Below are positions 2,987-27,595 of a stretch of 64,000 nucleotides of DNA, in pieces. The stretch comes from a virus. Its lineage: Duplodnaviria; Caudoviricetes. The translations under genes were made by a program, and so were the position numbers. The notes beneath the pieces are model-generated. The model saw only the letters and a list, made by a program, of their open reading frames with translations, ran no database searches and was not told the origin of the DNA. Location: positions 42,381 through 106,380 of IMG/VR virus record IMGVR_UViG_3300014205_000187; one strand, written 5' to 3'. Within the stretch, counting starts at the first letter, position 1, and each line of letters begins with the position of its first letter.

Positions 2987-5596
2987 ATGCGTAATCCAGA
3001 ATGTGATCGATGTTCGTTCGGCTTAAATAGTCCCAAAGTTCCCAGGCATATATGTTTAATGCCTGCGGTCAAAGATATTCCTGAAGTAGAAGTAGTCCTT
3101 GTAGCCGAACAGCCTCCTATGCAGGATGACACGTATGGTCGCATATTCTCTGGAAAAGGTCTGACCGAAATACGCACTTTTTTCGATCAGAATAATATAC
3201 CTACTTATTGCACTTTCGCTTTGAAATGTGCCCGTCCCAATAAGGACACCAAACCTGAAGGAAAACATGTAAAGGTTTGCGCTCATGGCTACAATTCAGC
3301 AACCAAAAAAATCGACCAAGAAGGGTATTTATCTCAAGAACTCCAGCACGTCAAGCCCAAGCACATTATCACTTTCGGCAGTAACGCCCATTATGGAGCT
3401 ACAGGTAAAAAGTGCGCGGCTGAAAAGTTTGGTGGTCGTTACTTTGATGAGCGACTTAACGCATATATCTACCCTACTGTCCATTGGATTCAGACGCTTT
3501 ATAATCAGCAAGTCAAAGACCAGATGTGGGCGCATTTGCGTCAATTCGTGGATTGGATTAACGGAGAAACTGAAGATGTGGGCTTCAGTCCACGAGTCAT
3601 CGTGGCAGACTCACTCAAGTCGCTTCGTGCTGTACGAAAAAGAATTAGGGCCGCTGGAGGAGTGGTGGCCGTGGACACGGAAACTGACGGCCTTAATCCA
3701 TTCCTTGAAAACAAGCATGTCCGGTCTATTCAGTTTTGTTGGGACCCCGATTTTGGTGGTGTATTCGTTCCTCTTATGGTTGGGGAGAACTGCTATTACA
3801 CTGACCAGGATAACCCGGCTGAGTTCTGGACTGAAGAATCCCTCGAAGAAGCTGTAGACATCATCAGAGACATCTTAGCGGAGAGCCAGTGCATCTGGCA
3901 TAATGGAAAGTTTGATCGATTATGGCTGCATGAGTGGGGTAAACGAGAGTTTGATAAACCCATAGAAGCTCCCAACATATACATGGATACGATGCACGTT
4001 GCTCATCTTATCAACGAGAATCGTATCCTCAAACTCAAAGTGCTCATAACCTCGGAACTTGGTTATCCAACTTACGACATCGCAAACAAACTCACCAAAA
4101 ATATGGATGAGTTGATACCTTATGCTGCGCGTGATACCGTGGCAACTCTTTTACTGGCTCAAAAATATGTAGGTATCTTAAAAGATTCTGATAAAAAGAA
4201 ACTGAGACGACTCTATGCCAAGCTCATCCGAAAAATGGATGGGCTATTCACTAAGATGGAGCTTCGAGGCTGGCCGGTTCACAAAAAGACTGTAGTGAGA
4301 CTTCTGGAGGCCATAGACACTGAAGTAGAGCGTGTAGAGAAAGAACTCTATGATATTCTGGAAAAAGAGGGCATAGAAGTTCCTGACAAAGCATTCAGCA
4401 GTCCTCAAAAGATGGCTCGTATTCTCTTCGATGATTTGAAGTATCCGCTCAATCCCGATAAACGAATAGCCTACACTCCTACCAAAACTCGATCTACAAA
4501 AAGCGATGCTCTCATCCATCTCAAAGGAAGACCCTTCGTTGACAAGTTTTTAGAGTGGCGTGGTCTTATGAAAACACGGTCAACGTATGTTGAACCTATG
4601 CTGATGTTTGCTGAGAGTCGAGGTCGAATAAGCACCAGTTATAGACTTACTGGAGCTGTGACAGGTCGCACAGCGTCCGGCAAAGAGAGTCAGGAATCCT
4701 CCACCAGCAGCAAAAAAGATAAAAGTGGAATGAACCTACAAAATCTCAATTACTCAGTTTATGGGCCTGAAAAACTCTCTGTAAAGCACTGCATACGCGC
4801 ACGAAAAGGATGGTCAATAGTCGAGGTAGACCTGTCTCAAATAGAACTTCGTATTACGGGTGAAGTGTCGAAAGACCCTCTTTTCTTACGATCATATCAG
4901 GAAGGTAAAGACATTCATGCGATTCGTGCTATGAGGATTCTCCACTTAGATGAAGATGGTTGGGCTGCGCTTCCTAAAGCAGATCAGAAAAAAGCCAGAG
5001 GAAATGCCAAGCCGGTCAACTTTGGATTTATATATGGGATGCAGGCTGCCAAGTTCAAAGTATACGCTCTTACCGATTATGGCGTAGACTTTTCTATGGC
5101 TGAATGCAATCAAATTAGAAACAAGTTTTTTGCTGACCACACCGGCCTGGAGCCGTGGTATGGAAAACAAGAACGTGAAGCTATACGGTTGGGGTATGTG
5201 GAGAGTTTATCTGGTCGGCGGCGACATCTACCGAATATCAAGCTAGACCCTGATACCGGCAGAGAAGCACGAGCCAAATACAATGAAGCAATTCGTATGG
5301 CTGTCAATACACCTGTTCAAGGTTTTGCCAGCGATCTTAAACTAATGAGTCTTATTGAGGTGGACAGCTTTTTAGATGAGGAATGGGGGTATCTGTTTGG
5401 CGAGGTTCACGACTCTATTCTTCTTGAAGTTCGAGATGATAAGGTAGATGAGACAGTAAGAAAAACCCTCAAAGTGATGGAACATCCAAGAATACTGGAT
5501 GAACTGGGTATCACTCTTACCGTGCCGATATGCGCCGAGGCTAAAGTTGGTGTAAGTCTCGCTGAAGCCAAGGAGTATGTTCCCAATGGCTCTTGA
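2987..5596 (+). CDS. polA: family A DNA polymerase with N-terminal uracil-DNA-glycosylase-like domain and 3'-5' exonuclease
   Basis: Exo motifs VDTET, HNGKFD, YAARD; polymerase motifs DLSQIELR, KPVNFGFIYG, VHDSILLE; N-terminal CxxC, AEQP, LKCARP resembling family-4 UDG. Confidence 0.95.
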   Translation: MRNPECDRCSFGLNSPKVPRHICLMPAVKDIPEVEVVLVAEQPPMQDDTYGRIFSGKGLTEIRTFFDQNNIPTYCTFALKCARPNKDTKPEGKHVKVCAHGYNSATKKIDQEGYLSQELQHVKPKHIITFGSNAHYGATGKKCAAEKFGGRYFDERLNAYIYPTVHWIQTLYNQQVKDQMWAHLRQFVDWINGETEDVGFSPRVIVADSLKSLRAVRKRIRAAGGVVAVDTETDGLNPFLENKHVRSIQFCWDPDFGGVFVPLMVGENCYYTDQDNPAEFWTEESLEEAVDIIRDILAESQCIWHNGKFDRLWLHEWGKREFDKPIEAPNIYMDTMHVAHLINENRILKLKVLITSELGYPTYDIANKLTKNMDELIPYAARDTVATLLLAQKYVGILKDSDKKKLRRLYAKLIRKMDGLFTKMELRGWPVHKKTVVRLLEAIDTEVERVEKELYDILEKEGIEVPDKAFSSPQKMARILFDDLKYPLNPDKRIAYTPTKTRSTKSDALIHLKGRPFVDKFLEWRGLMKTRSTYVEPMLMFAESRGRISTSYRLTGAVTGRTASGKESQESSTSSKKDKSGMNLQNLNYSVYGPEKLSVKHCIRARKGWSIVEVDLSQIELRITGEVSKDPLFLRSYQEGKDIHAIRAMRILHLDEDGWAALPKADQKKARGNAKPVNFGFIYGMQAAKFKVYALTDYGVDFSMAECNQIRNKFFADHTGLEPWYGKQEREAIRLGYVESLSGRRRHLPNIKLDPDTGREARAKYNEAIRMAVNTPVQGFASDLKLMSLIEVDSFLDEEWGYLFGEVHDSILLEVRDDKVDETVRKTLKVMEHPRILDELGITLTVPICAEAKVGVSLAEAKEYVPNGS

Positions 5597-15796: not shown

Positions 15797-18700
15797 ATGG
15801 CGAGACTCCTTGCAAAACCGAAGTCCCGGCTTTTGGTCACTCAAGTGGCTAAGAGAAAGGATGTAAGTCCTGATACGGGAGAAAAGAAATACGGTGATGT
15901 CAAGTTCGCTGACCCGACGAACAGTAAGTATCCGATAGACACTAAAGAACATGCAAAAGCGGCCTGGAGTTACATCAACAAGTCTAAAAACGCTGCTAAA
16001 TACAGCGCGTCAGACTTGAAGGGAATCAAAAGTCGCATTAAGACCGCTTGCAAAAAGTTTGGTGTTGAAATCTCTGCGGACGAACAGGCAGTCTTCGAGC
16101 ATGACCCGATGATGGAAGTGACTCAGAGCCACTACTACATCGATGGAAGCTATGAAGACCACTGCTCCAAAATCTCGGCAGCTTTCAAGCAGTGGCGTAG
16201 GATGGAAGAGTATTGGGATTATAGGTGGGCCAATATCCTTGGTATTACCGATACCTCGATCTACTTCTACACTACCGACTGGGATTCCACAGAGCCGGAA
16301 TACTTCGAGATTGGCTACTCTGTTGAAGGTTCAAAAGTAGTCATAAACGGTGAAGTCCAACGGGTCGATGTAAAACTCATGGTTGACACTCTGGCTGTGC
16401 CTGATGACGATGATGAGTCGAGCATACAAGGGGACGACACACAAACCGGAGAGGAGCAGAAACCGATGGAAACAAAACAGGATACAGTGCCCGATGAGTC
16501 GGCCATCACTGATGCTGCGGTTGCGGCCCCTGCTCAAATTGGCAGTCCTGCGCCGAGTGGAACTGGCAAGAAAACCGATGCTGAGACCAAAGGTTCTTCC
16601 GTGGAAGACCCTGCCGCCGATGCTAACAGCAATAAACCGGCAGATCACAGTGACGGTGAGGGGGCCAGCGAAGAGGCTGCCGATGGCAGCAGCAAAACTG
16701 CCGTGAAAGAAGCACTCGATACAACGGCACCGGGTTACAAGGGTGAACCGGCTGGCACCGATGGAACTCCTGAACCTTACGCTGGTCAGTCTGACAAGCG
16801 AGAAGCTCAACAGGGTGTTCCTTACGATCAGGCCGGACAGTCGATGTGCTACATCCAGAAAGTCGAAAAGACTACTGGAGCTGATGGCAAAACCCTCATG
16901 AAAATGCAGGGTATCGCCACCAGAGGCGACATCGTAAACAAGGTAGGCCAGGTCTACCCGTTGAGCGTTTGGGAGAAGAATCTCCCTGAGATGAACAAGC
17001 AGGCTGCGAACGGCAAGTTCATCGGAAAGCTCGAACACCCAGAAATGGAACAAGGCTTGGTAGATACCGCTATCAAGTTTGACCGATTTTACCTCCAGGG
17101 AAGTGACGTGTGGTTCGAGGCTACCGTCGTTCCCACGGAACCTCACGGTAAAAACCTCCAAGCTCTGCTCGAAGCTGGAGTTCAGGTTGACATGTCCACT
17201 CGTGGATATGGCACGTTCGCAATGCAAGATTGGCGTGGCACCGAGCGGCCCGTCATGCAAGATGACTTCGTTTGCACAGCTATCGACGCTGTGTGGCACG
17301 GAGCATCTTCCGGCTCTGGCGTGAAGTCCACTTCTTACCAGAGCGACCCTAATCTCGAAAAAGGAGAGCAAAAACCAGTGGAAACCAAAGACACCACCAC
17401 TCAATCCGATGTTCAGGTAAAGGCTGCTGCAATCAGAGCCAGTGCCGAACTCAAACAGACTAGGGCCGCTCTTCTGGGCGATGCCGGTCTGAACGAACTG
17501 GGAATGAAGGCTTACCAGACTGCACTTGATAAGTGCGATAGTCTGGAAAACCTCATCGTTACCAGTGAGACGCTGCTTCCGCACCTTCAGGCTACATTCC
17601 CTGCGGCCACAGGTGACGCTCAGGAAGTGACCCAGAGCGCAACTTACAGTCCTACATTCTTCAAAAAGCAGAATCAGGAAGAGGCTGCTCCGCAGAACGT
17701 GGGCGAATTGCTTGACCGTATGGTAGCCGATCTGCCGGACCATTACGAAGGTCAAGCCGTCAATCCCAATTTGCCGAGCCACTTCAGCTCCCCTCGGGCA
17801 GCGTGTAAGAGGCTCATGGTCAATATCGCACGGGAACAGCAAGGTTCATTCTCCGGTCGCAACGCCGCTCTCGGCCTCTTGGCTCTTGAGCAGGGCAAGA
17901 TTGACCGGGCGCAGGATATTCTCTTGCAAAGCCTCGCAACCGGCGCAACCATCGCTGATGGAAACGCTGATGGTGGTGGTGCTCCTTTGAGCAACTACCT
18001 CATCTTCCCGTTGGTCAGACGTGTATTCCCCATGTATATCATGGGTATGATCGCTAGCATCCAGCCGCTCGACAGGCCGGAAGGTAAGATTTTCTTCCTC
18101 GATCAGTACCGTGTAGACGGTTCTGCTAACGAGACAAGAATCGACCTGAACACTTCGAGCAATCCGTTCAATTCTTCGTTTGCTGACAACGCCACTGAAG
18201 GTTCGGCGGCTATGCAGATGAGACTCCGCTTGACGAGTGCCCTGGTTCAGGCGCATACCAAGAAATTGGGCGCGTCCTGGTCACTCGAAGAAATGCAGGA
18301 TTTGAGAGCCTACCACGGTCTCGATGCTGCACAGGAGCTTCTCGGAGGCGTCGCTCGTGAGATGGCTTTGGAGTGGAACAAGGAAGTCCTGGACGACATG
18401 CTGGCTCAGGCTACAGCGTCCGCTTTGACCTTCGGAACTACCATTCCGGCTACTGGGTTTACTCAGCAGAAGGATTGGGACGAGTATCTGTGGGTCTACC
18501 TCAACAAGCTCGATTCGGCCATTTTCTCAAAGAGAAATGGGGCTATGACTCACATCATAGCTGGCGTCGATGCTGCTCTCGCAATGAGCAAGTCCATGCG
18601 CGGCGTCTTTACGTTCAACGCCAACGATGATGGCGTTGATGGAGAGATTTATCCGGGAACCACGTTCTACGGAACAGTCTCTATCCCTGGTGCTGGTAAG

Positions 18701-18961
18701 TATAAAGTTCTGAGAACGAACTTCTGGTCTACCGGCACGACAAACGGCTCGAAGATTCTTGGTCTCCGCAAGGGTGCCGAGTGGTCTGATACGCCGTACA
18801 TCTGGGCACCATACACCGACTATGTGACTCCGATGCTTACTGACCCGGCTGACTTCAGCCAGAAGCAGGGCATCATCAGCAGAGCCGCAAAGAAGGTCGT
18901 GGTCGCAGACGCGATGGGGACCATCACCGTCAACAGCGGCGTGGGCGAGCTTGTCAGCTAA
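15797..18961 (+). CDS. capsid polyprotein: DUF6582-like N-terminus + T4 gp21-like prohead protease + scaffold + T4 gp23-like major capsid protein
   Basis: KYPIDTKEHAKAAWSYI; protease NKVGQVYP/GKLEHP/MSTRGYG/IDAV; capsid PLVRRVFP, IQPLDRPEG, WSLEEMQDLRAYHGLDAAQEL, WAPY. Confidence 0.9.
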   Translation: MARLLAKPKSRLLVTQVAKRKDVSPDTGEKKYGDVKFADPTNSKYPIDTKEHAKAAWSYINKSKNAAKYSASDLKGIKSRIKTACKKFGVEISADEQAVFEHDPMMEVTQSHYYIDGSYEDHCSKISAAFKQWRRMEEYWDYRWANILGITDTSIYFYTTDWDSTEPEYFEIGYSVEGSKVVINGEVQRVDVKLMVDTLAVPDDDDESSIQGDDTQTGEEQKPMETKQDTVPDESAITDAAVAAPAQIGSPAPSGTGKKTDAETKGSSVEDPAADANSNKPADHSDGEGASEEAADGSSKTAVKEALDTTAPGYKGEPAGTDGTPEPYAGQSDKREAQQGVPYDQAGQSMCYIQKVEKTTGADGKTLMKMQGIATRGDIVNKVGQVYPLSVWEKNLPEMNKQAANGKFIGKLEHPEMEQGLVDTAIKFDRFYLQGSDVWFEATVVPTEPHGKNLQALLEAGVQVDMSTRGYGTFAMQDWRGTERPVMQDDFVCTAIDAVWHGASSGSGVKSTSYQSDPNLEKGEQKPVETKDTTTQSDVQVKAAAIRASAELKQTRAALLGDAGLNELGMKAYQTALDKCDSLENLIVTSETLLPHLQATFPAATGDAQEVTQSATYSPTFFKKQNQEEAAPQNVGELLDRMVADLPDHYEGQAVNPNLPSHFSSPRAACKRLMVNIAREQQGSFSGRNAALGLLALEQGKIDRAQDILLQSLATGATIADGNADGGGAPLSNYLIFPLVRRVFPMYIMGMIASIQPLDRPEGKIFFLDQYRVDGSANETRIDLNTSSNPFNSSFADNATEGSAAMQMRLRLTSALVQAHTKKLGASWSLEEMQDLRAYHGLDAAQELLGGVAREMALEWNKEVLDDMLAQATASALTFGTTIPATGFTQQKDWDEYLWVYLNKLDSAIFSKRNGAMTHIIAGVDAALAMSKSMRGVFTFNANDDGVDGEIYPGTTFYGTVSIPGAGKYKVLRTNFWSTGTTNGSKILGLRKGAEWSDTPYIWAPYTDYVTPMLTDPADFSQKQGIISRAAKKVVVADAMGTITVNSGVGELVS

Positions 18962-24059: not shown

Positions 24060-24553
24060 TGCCCGGCGCACAAGTCCGAATCAATGTCAAATGGAATAAA
24101 CTTTCAATGGCTCATGTGCTTCAGCAAATCGAAGAAGGGGCTGTTGCTACTCTTGCTCAGGTTAGACCAGAAGTTGAAGAGATAATTAAAAAGTCATTTG
24201 GTACGGAGTATTATACGCTTAAACAATTGGCTCAAATGGGGTATCCTTATTCGGATAGACATGGAACTGGACGCCCTGGAGGTCTTCCTGCTGGCGTAGT
24301 TAATAGACACAAAGGCGAGTTTTATCAAGGATTCAAAATCAGATTAACCAAGACCGAAAAACGAGTAGGTCTTTATGTCACCTTGGAAGGTGGTAGAGCT
24401 GAAGAACTTGGAGAAAAGCTCTTACACGGAGACCCAGAGCATCACATGATGGGTAGACCGTGGGATACTCATTTACGAAAACAGCTTGGAACCTTGCGTC
24501 CTGTCATAGAACAACTGGCAGGAAAATATCTAAGAATACGAGTTAAAATCTGA
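24059..24553 (+). CDS. putative tail-completion (HK97 gp10-like) protein
   Basis: Position; basic protein with HGD..MMGRPW motif. Confidence 0.5.
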   Translation: MPGAQVRINVKWNKLSMAHVLQQIEEGAVATLAQVRPEVEEIIKKSFGTEYYTLKQLAQMGYPYSDRHGTGRPGGLPAGVVNRHKGEFYQGFKIRLTKTEKRVGLYVTLEGGRAEELGEKLLHGDPEHHMMGRPWDTHLRKQLGTLRPVIEQLAGKYLRIRVKI

Positions 24554-25731
24554 TGGCTAATATAGTTGCGGCTAAAACAGGAAATTGGTCAGACCCTACC
24601 GTGTGGGTAGGAGGCGTACTGCCTGGAGCCAATGATATTGCTATAACCGATAATTATACAATCACAATAGATCAAAATGTCACATGCACAAAGTTAAGCA
24701 ATGAGGCTGTTAGTGGTCATGGTTCTGGACATTATGAGCTTGTAGGCACTATGGATTGTGTAATAAACGCCATTATTGAAAGTTATCCTGCGGCTGGAGT
24801 ATGTTTACAGATTTACAGTGCCGGTCTTACGACTATCAATGGAAATTGTCTTAATCAAGCCGTTCGGGTAAATGCTGCTTTGGCTGTTGTAGTAGTTAAT
24901 GGTAATGTTATTGGTGGTATAAATCTCAGACATTATGGCATATCCGCTACACAAGGCCAACTTACTGTAAATGGGTATGCTAAAGGAGGTACAGGTCTTG
25001 AGGCTGTAGGAGTCTACAATTTAACAAGTAAAGTTTATGTAGAACGTGCTATAGGAAATGATTATGGGCCTGGAGGTATCAATTCTTCTGCTGTTGGAGT
25101 ATCTGGAAATGGAGGAATAACAGCCAGTATAGAAACATTCGTTAAGTATCTTCAATGGGGAACCTATGGGATGTGTCCTGTTTCTGGAACTATAAAAATG
25201 GTAAGAGATGATACCAACGAAGCTCTTTTAAGAGACAGCACTGATGGCAGTGAGATAGCTCTTACAGTGGCTTCAACTACACCTGAACCAGAGCCTACAC
25301 CAACTCCGACTCCTGATACATCTGGGTCTAATCTGATAAGCTCGTTCTTTAATTATATCAGAGGTAAAATAGCTCTGGCTTCATGGTTCACAGATCAAGG
25401 ATTCACGAACCAGACTGTTTATCGACAGTTTTTACCCCAAGTCAAAGACCCCAATTTTCCTTGTATCACTTTCGGTTTAGACCCTGAAAAACGAGAAGTT
25501 TTTGCTACTATCGATGATACTACCCTTTACATCGGAGTGCATACAAAAACATTCACTGCAACCGAGTTTGTGGCTAACAGTATTAAAGACCTGCTCCATA
25601 AACACCAGTACTCAGATGATAACCTAATTATCTATAAATGTCTGTTTACTGGGGGTTCCCCTATGCCTATGTTTGATAAGGCTCTCAACATCTGGGAAGT
25701 TGTCCTGGAGTTTGAGTGCTCTGTCGGGTGA
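24553..25731 (+). CDS. putative tail terminator fused to an N-terminal beta-rich domain through a Pro/Thr linker
   Basis: TGNWSDPTVW start, Gly/Asn beta repeats, PEPEPTPTPTP linker, about 130-aa C-terminal domain (FPCITF..IKDLLH) just before the tail tube gene. Confidence 0.55.
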   Translation: MANIVAAKTGNWSDPTVWVGGVLPGANDIAITDNYTITIDQNVTCTKLSNEAVSGHGSGHYELVGTMDCVINAIIESYPAAGVCLQIYSAGLTTINGNCLNQAVRVNAALAVVVVNGNVIGGINLRHYGISATQGQLTVNGYAKGGTGLEAVGVYNLTSKVYVERAIGNDYGPGGINSSAVGVSGNGGITASIETFVKYLQWGTYGMCPVSGTIKMVRDDTNEALLRDSTDGSEIALTVASTTPEPEPTPTPTPDTSGSNLISSFFNYIRGKIALASWFTDQGFTNQTVYRQFLPQVKDPNFPCITFGLDPEKREVFATIDDTTLYIGVHTKTFTATEFVANSIKDLLHKHQYSDDNLIIYKCLFTGGSPMPMFDKALNIWEVVLEFECSVG

Positions 25732-25900
25732 TTATTCTCCCGGATAAATCCGAGAGCTTCTAGGCTTTCACCAAAGACTGTAATCCCAGTCTTAGAATGT
25801 TAATTGCGGCGTTGGTGTCTCTGTCTAAAGACAACCCACAATTAGGACAAAAATGCCACCTCTCTTTAAGAGGTTTTTTAGCTCTAAAACCACAAGCTGA
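25708..25900 (-). ncRNA. predicted TnpB omega/reRNA (scaffold in tnpB 3' end and right end; guide CCGACAGAGCACTCAAACTC)
   Basis: Established TnpB reRNA architecture; 5' boundary is only approximate. Confidence 0.6.
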
Positions 25901-26857
25901 ACAATCTTGTGATGTGTAGGCTGGGTTCACACTTAGTAATATCCTACCGGCACTTTCAGCCTTGTTAGTTAATACTGAGCGGAATTGAGTCCAACTTGCA
26001 TCAGAAATCGATTTAGCTAAACAACGATTCAAAAGCATATTTTTAGTGTTGAGTTTTTCGACTATCAAAACATCATTTTCATTAACTAACTTTCGAGAAA
26101 GTTGATGAACAAAATTATGTCTACGATTTCTAATTCGTTCATGCACACGAGATATTACTTTTTTTGCTCTGCATCTCTCTTTAGAACCTTTAGGCTGCTT
26201 GAAAAGTTTTCTTTGACTTTTGGCGAGAGCCTTTTCTTCCTTGCGAAAAAATCTTGGATTATCAATAAACACGCCATCAGAGAGTGCAGCAAACTTTTCA
26301 AGTCCTACATCTATTCCAATAGATTTGCTTGTTAGTGGCAGAATCGCAGGTTCAACCTCACAAACAAAACAGACAAACCATTTGTTATTCTGTCTTCTGA
26401 TGGTGCAGGTCTTGACAATCCCGGTAATAGGTCGATGCAGTTTAATCTTAACACTACCAATCTTGGAGAGCTTGATCTTATTCTCAGAAACAGACCAACC
26501 AGATTGAGGATAAGTAAAAGAATCATACCAGTCTCGTCCTTTGAGTCTGGGATACCCAGGATTCTCTCCTGCTTTAACTCGGCGAAAAAATGCTTTGAAA
26601 GCAAGATCAACTCGCACGGCGACATTTTGAAGAACCTGAGAATGAACACTCTGAAGTTTTGTCCATGTTCCTCTAAATATCTGGAGCTTTCGTGCTTGAG
26701 CATAATAAGTAAGTCCTTTGCCCGAAAACTCATAAGTATCTTGTCTATCTGCAAGCATCCAGTTATACACATGACGGCATACATCCAGAGTTTGCTCGAA
26801 AGAACTAATCTGAGTCTTAGTCGGATATAGCCTATATTTTAAGCAAACTGTTTGCAT
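25760..26857 (-). CDS. tnpB: RNA-guided endonuclease TnpB (365 aa)
   Basis: KYRLYPT, GYPRLK, RuvC IGIDVG / IVEKL / DRDTNAAINI all intact, zinc ribbon CSAC..CPNC. Start at MQTV (26857). Confidence 0.95.
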   Translation of the reverse strand: MQTVCLKYRLYPTKTQISSFEQTLDVCRHVYNWMLADRQDTYEFSGKGLTYYAQARKLQIFRGTWTKLQSVHSQVLQNVAVRVDLAFKAFFRRVKAGENPGYPRLKGRDWYDSFTYPQSGWSVSENKIKLSKIGSVKIKLHRPITGIVKTCTIRRQNNKWFVCFVCEVEPAILPLTSKSIGIDVGLEKFAALSDGVFIDNPRFFRKEEKALAKSQRKLFKQPKGSKERCRAKKVISRVHERIRNRRHNFVHQLSRKLVNENDVLIVEKLNTKNMLLNRCLAKSISDASWTQFRSVLTNKAESAGRILLSVNPAYTSQDCSACGFRAKKPLKERWHFCPNCGLSLDRDTNAAINILRLGLQSLVKA

Positions 26858-26863
26858 ACAAAT

Positions 26864-26892
26864 AGTGTAACAAGTAATTGCTAAAAATGCAA
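26864..26892 (-). promoter_or_regulatory. tnpB promoter giving a leaderless mRNA
   Basis: TTGCAT-N17-TACACT, ending 6 nt before the ATG. Confidence 0.6.
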
Positions 26893-26995
26893 GAAAAGAA
26901 TAAATCTTTCTAAGTGGACAGGTATTCAGGTCTCCAATAATGTAAGCTAGTATCAGGCATACATTCGAGACTTTAACGAAAGGGGACACACGACG

Positions 26996-27595
26996 ATGCC
27001 GATTCAAAATAAAAACAACATCCACTTGGGTCTCGGCAATCTTGAGTTGGGAGTATACACGAACGATGTATTCTCCACTTATGAAGATGTCGGTGCTATC
27101 AAATCCGAACTCAATATCACTCACACCAGAGAGGTATTGGACTTCGAGAGTGGTCGTCCTCTGGTAACTATCCTCCAGGAAGTCATTCGAGAAAGAGTCG
27201 TCGTCACCGGCACTCTTGCAGAACTGACAGTGGCATCGCTGAAGATGGCTCTAGGCCAGGGTAACATCACAAGCGGCACCATTCCAACATTCCTTGATGG
27301 TTCCAGCACGGCCCTGAGTGGCACTCTGGCGGCAGGATTGACCGCCGTGGTGAGTGGCAACCTGCTCAAGTTTGGTGGAACTCCCACACACGCTTACGTG
27401 GGTCTGCGATTTACTCACGTCAAAGCAAACGGCAAGAGACACATCTTTGAAGGCTACAAAGCCAGTCCCAACGGAGACCTGGCTCTGCCGTTTAGAGAAG
27501 CTGACTGGAACCTATATCAGGTCAGTTTCCGCTTGCTGGCTGACACAACCAAAGCGGCTGGAGAACAGTATTACCAGTTCCTCATCGAACAGTAA
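26996..27595 (+). CDS. major tail tube protein
   Basis: IHLGLGNL..DVGAI, TGTLAELT..LKMALG, FRLLAD; precedes chaperone and tape measure genes. Confidence 0.8.
   Translation: MPIQNKNNIHLGLGNLELGVYTNDVFSTYEDVGAIKSELNITHTREVLDFESGRPLVTILQEVIRERVVVTGTLAELTVASLKMALGQGNITSGTIPTFLDGSSTALSGTLAAGLTAVVSGNLLKFGGTPTHAYVGLRFTHVKANGKRHIFEGYKASPNGDLALPFREADWNLYQVSFRLLADTTKAAGEQYYQFLIEQ

Follow-up and report, generated by a model that had tools for sequence, protein, structure and literature searches.

A TnpB-only element at the stop codon of a phage tail-terminator gene as a plausible RNA-guided homing nuclease

Here, we describe a TnpB-encoding element of the IS200/IS605 type in a 64,000-nucleotide stretch of viral DNA (hereafter, the window), the right-hand 64 kb of a 106,380-bp virus with direct terminal repeats (Caudoviricetes; IMG/VR record IMGVR_UViG_3300014205_000187). 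The element is present in a single copy in the 106-kb genome and is inserted in the late operon in antisense orientation, with the tail-terminator gene on one side and the tail-tube gene on the other. It combines an intact nuclease gene, a complete right end (RE) with conserved helices of a predicted omega-RNA, and a terminal TGA that serves as the stop codon of the tail-terminator gene; its left end (LE) is reduced to a short remnant. With slightly more than balanced confidence, we lean towards the interpretation that this TnpB-only insertion is dead as a transposon and likely functions as an RNA-guided homing nuclease. The element and the features adjoining it, including the probable transposon-adjacent motif (TAM), are the following.

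25728 to 26899, minus strand: the element as delimited, 1172 bp, made up of the intact RE, tnpB and 42 bp of residual LE, in essence only the promoter
25760 to 26857, minus strand: tnpB coding sequence, 365 amino acids (ATG at 26857, TAG at 25760), with RuvC residues D183, E267 and D347 and zinc ligands C319, C322, C337 and C340
25763 to 25792, minus strand: two omega-RNA helices at the tnpB 3' end, one with a 5-6-bp stem and an 8-nt loop (25775-25792), the other a 3-bp stem with a GAAA cap (25763-25772)
25737 to 25756, minus strand: terminal RE hairpin, with an 8-bp stem and a 4-nt loop in the window fold, followed by the conserved tail to TCAC
25708 to 25727, minus strand: RE flank, the predicted guide of the omega-RNA (also called reRNA), which is the terminator gene 3' end read on the tnpB strand
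26858 to 26899, minus strand: LE remnant with a -35-like hexamer (26887-26892) and a -10-like hexamer (26864-26869), the subterminal hairpin of the family being missing
26900 to 26904, minus strand: probable TAM, TTTAT; on the plus strand, A, the native and now unused stop TAA (26901-26903), and A

Results

An intact nuclease and no TnpA

An earlier note on this DNA, made from the letters alone, had described a TnpA-less TnpB with an intact RuvC D-E-D triad, and both statements were borne out for this element of the IS200/IS605 type. Three Pfam domains scored above the cut-offs, namely HTH_OrfB_IS605 (PF12323), OrfB_IS605 (PF01385) and Cas12f1-like TNB (PF07282), in the order typical of TnpB (HTH, OrfB/RuvC, zinc ribbon), and the protein also matched phrog_506 (E 5.6e-120). 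A full-length alignment to ISDra2 TnpB (8EXA; E 8.5e-66) places D191, E278 and D361 of the latter opposite D183, E267 and D347 of the window protein, and the CxxC..CxxC zinc motif is present as well. A search for Y1 TnpA (PF01797) across the whole 106-kb virus, in which the positive controls responded, found none.

In a quick maximum-likelihood tree, the window TnpB groups with viral and metagenomic sequences in a clade of 12 rows that includes no assigned bacterial genome (Shimodaira-Hasegawa-like approximate likelihood ratio test, SH-aLRT, 99), with P0008/P0009 as its sister. The ratio of non-synonymous to synonymous substitution rates (dN/dS) of tnpB against the clade members is 0.07-0.13, with dS near saturation, which indicates that the gene is under purifying selection. 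The nearest genomic relatives of this TnpB belong to Armatimonadota, a hint at the identity of the phage host.

A conserved RNA scaffold ending at the element boundary

In about 70 related loci, located on viral contigs and in bacterial genomes and including multi-copy genomes in which the copies have different flanks, homology passes through AGAAGCCC, a hairpin and GGGAGTA(G/A)TCAC, and ends directly after TCAC. In the window, the terminal TCAC occupies positions 25728-25731, with 25728 as the last RE base. Because the RE homology stops at this point, the junction 25727|25728 and the guide running from 25727 downwards are correct; the hairpin ending in TCAC, the junction on this side and the guide taken from the RE flank thus all stand as the earlier note had drawn them. 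With up to 2 mismatches allowed, the guide 16-mer occurs nowhere else in the 106-kb genome.

The alignment of 46 right ends yielded three helices, with compensatory changes in 13 of the 15 predicted pairs. Such changes are seen in the terminal RE hairpin across the 46 aligned relatives, and in the two helices at the tnpB 3' end 98-99% of the pairs are preserved and double changes are numerous; for helices 2-5, the paired fraction is 81-99%. In both of the latter comparisons, none of 500 shuffles reached the observed values. The minimum-free-energy fold of the window's own RNA contains the same three helices (z -3.4). We therefore predict a structured omega-RNA scaffold that spans the tnpB 3' end and the RE and ends at the element boundary. 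An Rfam search of the window returned no match.

A fourth hairpin (25858-25874) was dropped from the omega-RNA model, being not conserved in the family (52% of cells paired). This hairpin, located inside the tnpB 3' coding region, has a perfect stem of 6-7 bp followed by a T-run on both strands and was flagged as terminator-like; it might be a read-through terminator of the late operon or a lineage-specific feature.

Exchange of the tail-gene stop codon

On the opposite strand, the RE overlaps the end of the upstream tail gene.

24553 to 25731, plus strand: tail-terminator gene, 392 amino acids, with the terminator fold in residues 262-392, after a 260-amino-acid N-terminal extension

The open reading frame (ORF) of this gene ends in GTC GGG TGA, of which G25728 and the TGA at 25729-25731 belong to the RE of the element. 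This arrangement is a trait of the family: the family TAM, TTAN, is the reverse complement of N-TAA, and the family RE ends in GTCAC or ATCAC, that is (G/A)-TCAC, the reverse complement of G-TGA, so that antisense insertion at a TAA stop swaps XXN TAA for XXG TGA. In the window, GGN became GGG, the glycine is unchanged, and the original TAA survives just past the left end. The earlier claims that the element supplies the last G and the stop, that the C-terminus of the tail protein is preserved and that the insertion has no coding cost accordingly hold at the level of the protein sequence.

Of 70 independent insertions across the family, 16 have, on the opposite strand, an ORF of at least 80 codons that ends exactly on the RE-derived TGA, compared with 12 and 3 for the other two frames; the cases include a phage amidase gene beside the relative with 79% TnpB identity, and locus L133 of the sister lineage. 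These stop-codon insertions are probably explained by survivorship of harmless insertions.

Two further observations concern the flanks of related elements. In the sister lineage (L133, 586-600; L144, LE start), the outermost LE bases give AAGGAG when read on the opposite strand, about 7 nt in front of the following phage gene's ATG, and from its sequence the element there appears to supply a Shine-Dalgarno sequence besides a stop codon. Copies with 79% and 75% TnpB identity (L128 versus L129/L130, ~3001-4140; L134 versus L135) share the same LE flank and have entirely different RE flanks and downstream genes, so that the element coincides exactly with the point where phage modules change in the mosaic; recombination triggered at the element could be the cause.

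The second junction and the TAM

The position of the other junction can be judged from the empty sites of related phages, in which the sequence in front of the tube gene is conserved.

26905 to 26995, plus strand: native intergenic region 5' of the tube gene, with a T-rich motif, GGACAGGT at 26916-26923 and TAAGCTAGTA at 26943-26952; conserved in relatives
26996 to 27595, plus strand: tail-tube-like gene, 199 amino acids, with weak PHROG matches to major tail protein families

Via the tube protein, we found 12 distinct element-free phage relatives (66-87% tube identity; 76-87% for the tube gene where it served as the empty-site anchor). In these phages, the terminator gene usually ends in a glycine codon and TAA or TAG, followed by a T-rich spacer of 12-35 nt and GGACAGGT, with one exception that has a 4-nt spacer. 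Starting at 26900, the window shows the same layout (A TAA A, T-rich motif, GGACAGGT) and keeps a 12-nt spacer before GGACAGGT. Joining 25727 to 26900 gives a better alignment than joining 25727 to 26910 for 11 of the 12 relatives (summed score 178.5 versus 108.5), and the right-hand junction thus probably lies at 26899|26900, not at 26909|26910. With this fit to the empty sites of the relatives, the element is placed at 25728-26899, the native TAA is kept, and the TAM would be TTTAT, a motif that directly abuts the LE remnant. There is no duplication of the flank at the element.

The earlier note had set the boundary 10 nt further out, with the element at 25728-26909, a 52-bp left end, TTAG as the TAM, and an empty allele that joins 25727 to 26910 and places the stop 2 nt before the GGACAGG motif. 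Such a geometry would preserve the SVG* C-terminus; TTAG fits the TTAN pattern of the family and is seen in two or three distant members (L066, L067 and possibly L137), and a stop-to-motif spacer of just 4 nt occurs in one relative (L016/L116). However, TTAG is rare in the family at large and not established in any of the 12 clade members: in L137, TTAG can be read only if the left end is taken to be atypically short, and this reading is not shared by the sister copy L136. In the sister TnpB lineage, two independent insertions share the boundary TTAT|CG and thereby define the same TAM as the 26899|26900 junction does in the window. Moreover, the 10 bases that this geometry assigns to the element have no counterpart in the left ends of the family but mirror the A TAA A and T-rich motif of the relatives, 11 of which prefer the other junction; the closest one, L115, matches 8 of the 11 disputed bases. 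We accordingly consider the TTAG geometry, and with it the 26910 join, improbable, and a left end of 42 bp likelier than one of 52 bp. The disputed 10 bases were also evaluated as a small LE hairpin with a T-rich run, a candidate that was rejected as AT-rich, bulged and unconserved.

In multi-copy genomes, the TAM is TTAC, TTAT or TTAA depending on the sub-lineage, and the relatives with 79% and 75% TnpB identity use TTAC. At L133, the reconstructed empty site is sensible, with the GGA TAA of one gene overlapping the ATG of the next; the GG|ATAA geometry is the same as in the window, and the RE-supplied TGA ends a convergent gene of 342 amino acids. An alternative history is conceivable, in which an ancestral GGG TAA (as in L121) provided a TTAC TAM and the C was later lost together with the outer LE. 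Under either history, with TTTAT or an ancestral TTAC, the TAM would probably be TTAY and not TTAG.

Loss of the transposition end

On the tnpB strand, the typical LE of the family consists of the TAM, 12-14 nt, a hairpin that starts with AAAGCCC and ends with GGGGAT, and then the promoter, with 4-8 nt between the end of the -10 box and the start codon. We searched the window for the subterminal hairpin, and it is absent: only 42 nt (or 52 nt with the outer junction) precede the ATG, versus 80-220 nt, hairpin included, in relatives. What remains is the promoter layout TTGCAT, 17 nt, TACACT, 6 nt and ATG, which would be leaderless as the earlier note had proposed; of the 73 left ends of the family, at least 40 share this architecture, and the promoter is assigned from this positional conservation and not from a generic scan. 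Elsewhere in the family, the LE hairpin is internally deleted in the relative with 81% TnpB identity (L145) and has a degenerate 3' arm in that with 77% identity (L133).

The LE hairpin is what TnpA binds and needs. Because the hairpin is lost and the phage encodes no TnpA, the element presumably can no longer transpose. That the transposition end has decayed while the nuclease and guide RNA are retained is, in our view, the best argument for a TnpA-independent role of TnpB that benefits the element or the phage.

Genomic context

The AlphaFold2 (AF2) model of residues 262-392 of the upstream ORF (131 C-terminal residues; predicted local distance difference test score, pLDDT, 93) retrieved with Foldseek the terminators of lambda (gpU), T5 (p142), gene transfer agents and T1, and on the strength of this model we identify the domain as a tail terminator. 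In phage relatives, the terminator domain is encoded alone, as a protein of 134-140 amino acids. A word-based protein search with the terminator domain as the query gave no match. The N-terminal extension (24553-25335) is Gly/Val-rich, with a GNWSDPTVW-type start motif and a Pro/Thr/Glu linker to the terminator domain; the same type of motif opens otherwise unlike proteins in other viral contigs (L002-L015).

The element is located just upstream of an intergenic block that in the window (26905-26995) and in relatives (L016-L024, L115-L124) is composed of the T-rich motif, GGACAGGT, about 20 nt and TAAGCTAGTA. Both GGACAGGT and TAAGCTAGTA are unique or rare within the window, and the conserved block may be a late promoter or a regulatory site. 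The G+C content of the element is 0.37-0.39 versus 0.43-0.49 in the surroundings.

At 15797-18961 of the window, a single ORF of 1054 amino acids fuses a head-maturation protease (phrog_207) to a major head protein (phrog_138). Among the other structural ORFs, between 19.5 and 33 kb, PHROG matches are nearly absent, which suggests that this phage is very distant from those described.

Discussion

The results presented here translate into a model of RNA-guided homing. Under this model, a TnpB-only element of the IS200/IS605 family was inserted at the TAA stop of a phage tail-terminator gene, antisense to the late operon. TnpB would bind an omega-RNA with a 3' guide that extends into the terminator gene, and the complex would cut an element-free allele carrying TTTAT (or TTAC) and a match to the guide, about 15-21 bp into the terminator gene. 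In a co-infected cell, repair from the occupied genome would copy the element into the cut allele, that is, result in homing, whereas failed repair would eliminate the competitor. The anatomy of the locus is well supported; production of the RNA, TAM specificity, cleavage and homing are predictions from it, and the homing role appears plausible.

Several observations weigh against this model. The empty allele of the window phage, which the earlier note expected in related phages, was not found: exact searches of IMG/VR for both flanks gave 0 hits beyond the genome itself. All six contigs with an identical tube protein carry the same occupied neighbourhood, none of the relatives carries the element at the terminator-tube locus, and against the 20-nt guide every sequenced relative shows 4-14 mismatches, at least two of these in the first 12 positions; no target is known. 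The TAM assignment relies on relatives of 75-80% identity that use both TTAC and TTAT, and alignment of the window LE with the 79% relative does not fix the junction to the base. The model does not account for loss of the LE hairpin without disturbance of the phage sequence, and the exact LE junction is uncertain by a few bases. Finally, a generic sigma-70 scan of the window did not call the tnpB promoter, which scored 7/12; the own promoter of tnpB claimed by the earlier note is thus upheld as a layout shared with the family but not by the generic scan.

Further searches gave a similar picture. Another run yielded a near-identical copy of the phage (2 single-nucleotide polymorphisms in 6.6 kb), which is occupied, and among the contigs examined for coexisting occupied and empty alleles in closely related genomes, only occupied alleles were found. 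No match was obtained in scans with the empty sites as reconstructed for the two nearest phage-borne relatives; a metagenome scan with the tube protein recovered only diverged, empty relatives; and tnpB is absent upstream of the two tube proteins next in similarity (85-86% identical).

Fixation of the element in six of the six contigs of this phage, with neither an empty allele nor a second locus found and with no relative occupied at the same site, would also be compatible with a stranded, functionally irrelevant insertion sequence (IS) remnant. Under this scenario, an element of host origin, probably from Armatimonadota, was mobilized by a TnpA supplied in trans, subsequently lost the left end and has since been carried vertically at a low-cost stop codon, with TnpB playing no part in its persistence. 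The missing LE hairpin, the absence of TnpA and the weak tnpB promoter are all in line with such a history, and survivorship alone can account for the stop-codon insertions. Nevertheless, we regard a stranded remnant as rather unlikely. Despite the decayed transposition end, the ORF and the catalytic triad are preserved, as is every omega-RNA helix, a pattern repeated in two close relatives, and the dN/dS values are low throughout a viral and metagenomic clade with no assigned bacterial genome; with dS near saturation, however, selection on tnpB may have been relaxed recently.

If homing is the correct explanation, it might extend beyond this phage, although we offer this only as a tentative and rather doubtful generalization. 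The members of the clade, so far known from viral and metagenomic contigs only, would then be transposons turned into free-standing RNA-guided homing or competition nucleases, in which the LE hairpin has been lost, the nuclease and omega-RNA are maintained by purifying selection, and the ends have become adapted to cost-free positions within operons, with the RE-derived TGA in place of TAA and, in the sister lineage, an outward-facing Shine-Dalgarno sequence at the LE for the following gene.

One of the closest known counterparts is the ISDra2 OMEGA system of Deinococcus radiodurans (PDB 8EXA, 8H1J), to which the window TnpB aligns over its full length, sharing the D-E-D RuvC triad and the zinc finger. 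The organization is also alike, with a guide RNA encoded by the tnpB 3' end and the RE, a guide taken from the RE flank and a TAM located 5' of the LE. Unlike ISDra2, the window element has a TTAY-like TAM (TTGAT in ISDra2), lacks both tnpA and the LE hairpin, and is carried by a phage, antisense within a late operon. Close similarity is also seen with TnpB-only (IS1341-type) relatives on viral and Armatimonadota/Chloroflexota contigs (L025, L133, L144, L145 and others), whose TnpB is 74-81% identical and which share the RE consensus ending in TCAC, a promoter abutting the ATG, and TTAC or TTAT as the TAM; several of these are likewise inserted antisense on the stop codon of a convergent gene. 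Their insertion sites differ, however, and most of them, in contrast to the window copy with its 42-bp LE, keep a complete LE with the hairpin 12-14 nt from the TAM.

The position of a nuclease gene between conserved phage genes resembles that of free-standing homing endonuclease genes of the T4 Seg/Mob type. As in the case of homing endonucleases, and of the gene drive by TnpB-encoding IS on plasmids, the window element would cut a co-resident element-free allele, to be followed by recombinational copying; unlike in the Seg/Mob type, recognition would be RNA-guided and set by the presence or absence of the element.

TnpB has been shown to cut targets consisting of the TAM and the RE flank at element-free (vacated) sites and to promote re-copying of the element (PMC8612924; bioRxiv 10.1101/2023.03.14.532601). 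As presented in a review (PMC13565253), spread among plasmid copies needs TnpB and not TnpA (PMC11870625), and the same review names co-infecting phages as a theoretical target of TnpB homing. Phages that carry tnpB have been described before, cyanophage A-1(L) among them (10.64898/2026.02.14.705889), and the literature we searched contains no demonstration of homing by any phage-borne TnpB.

Thus, homing by TnpB has been shown for bacterial chromosomes and plasmids and only proposed for co-infecting phages (PMC13565253). The locus described here is a concrete test case, with a defined nuclease, scaffold and guide (25708-25727) and two competing predictions for the TAM and the empty site. More generally, the exchange of TAA for TGA by elements with a TTAN TAM and a TCAC end, combined with the recurrent loss of the LE that is also seen in the relatives with 81% and 77% TnpB identity, suggests a route by which such elements may persist in compact phage operons.

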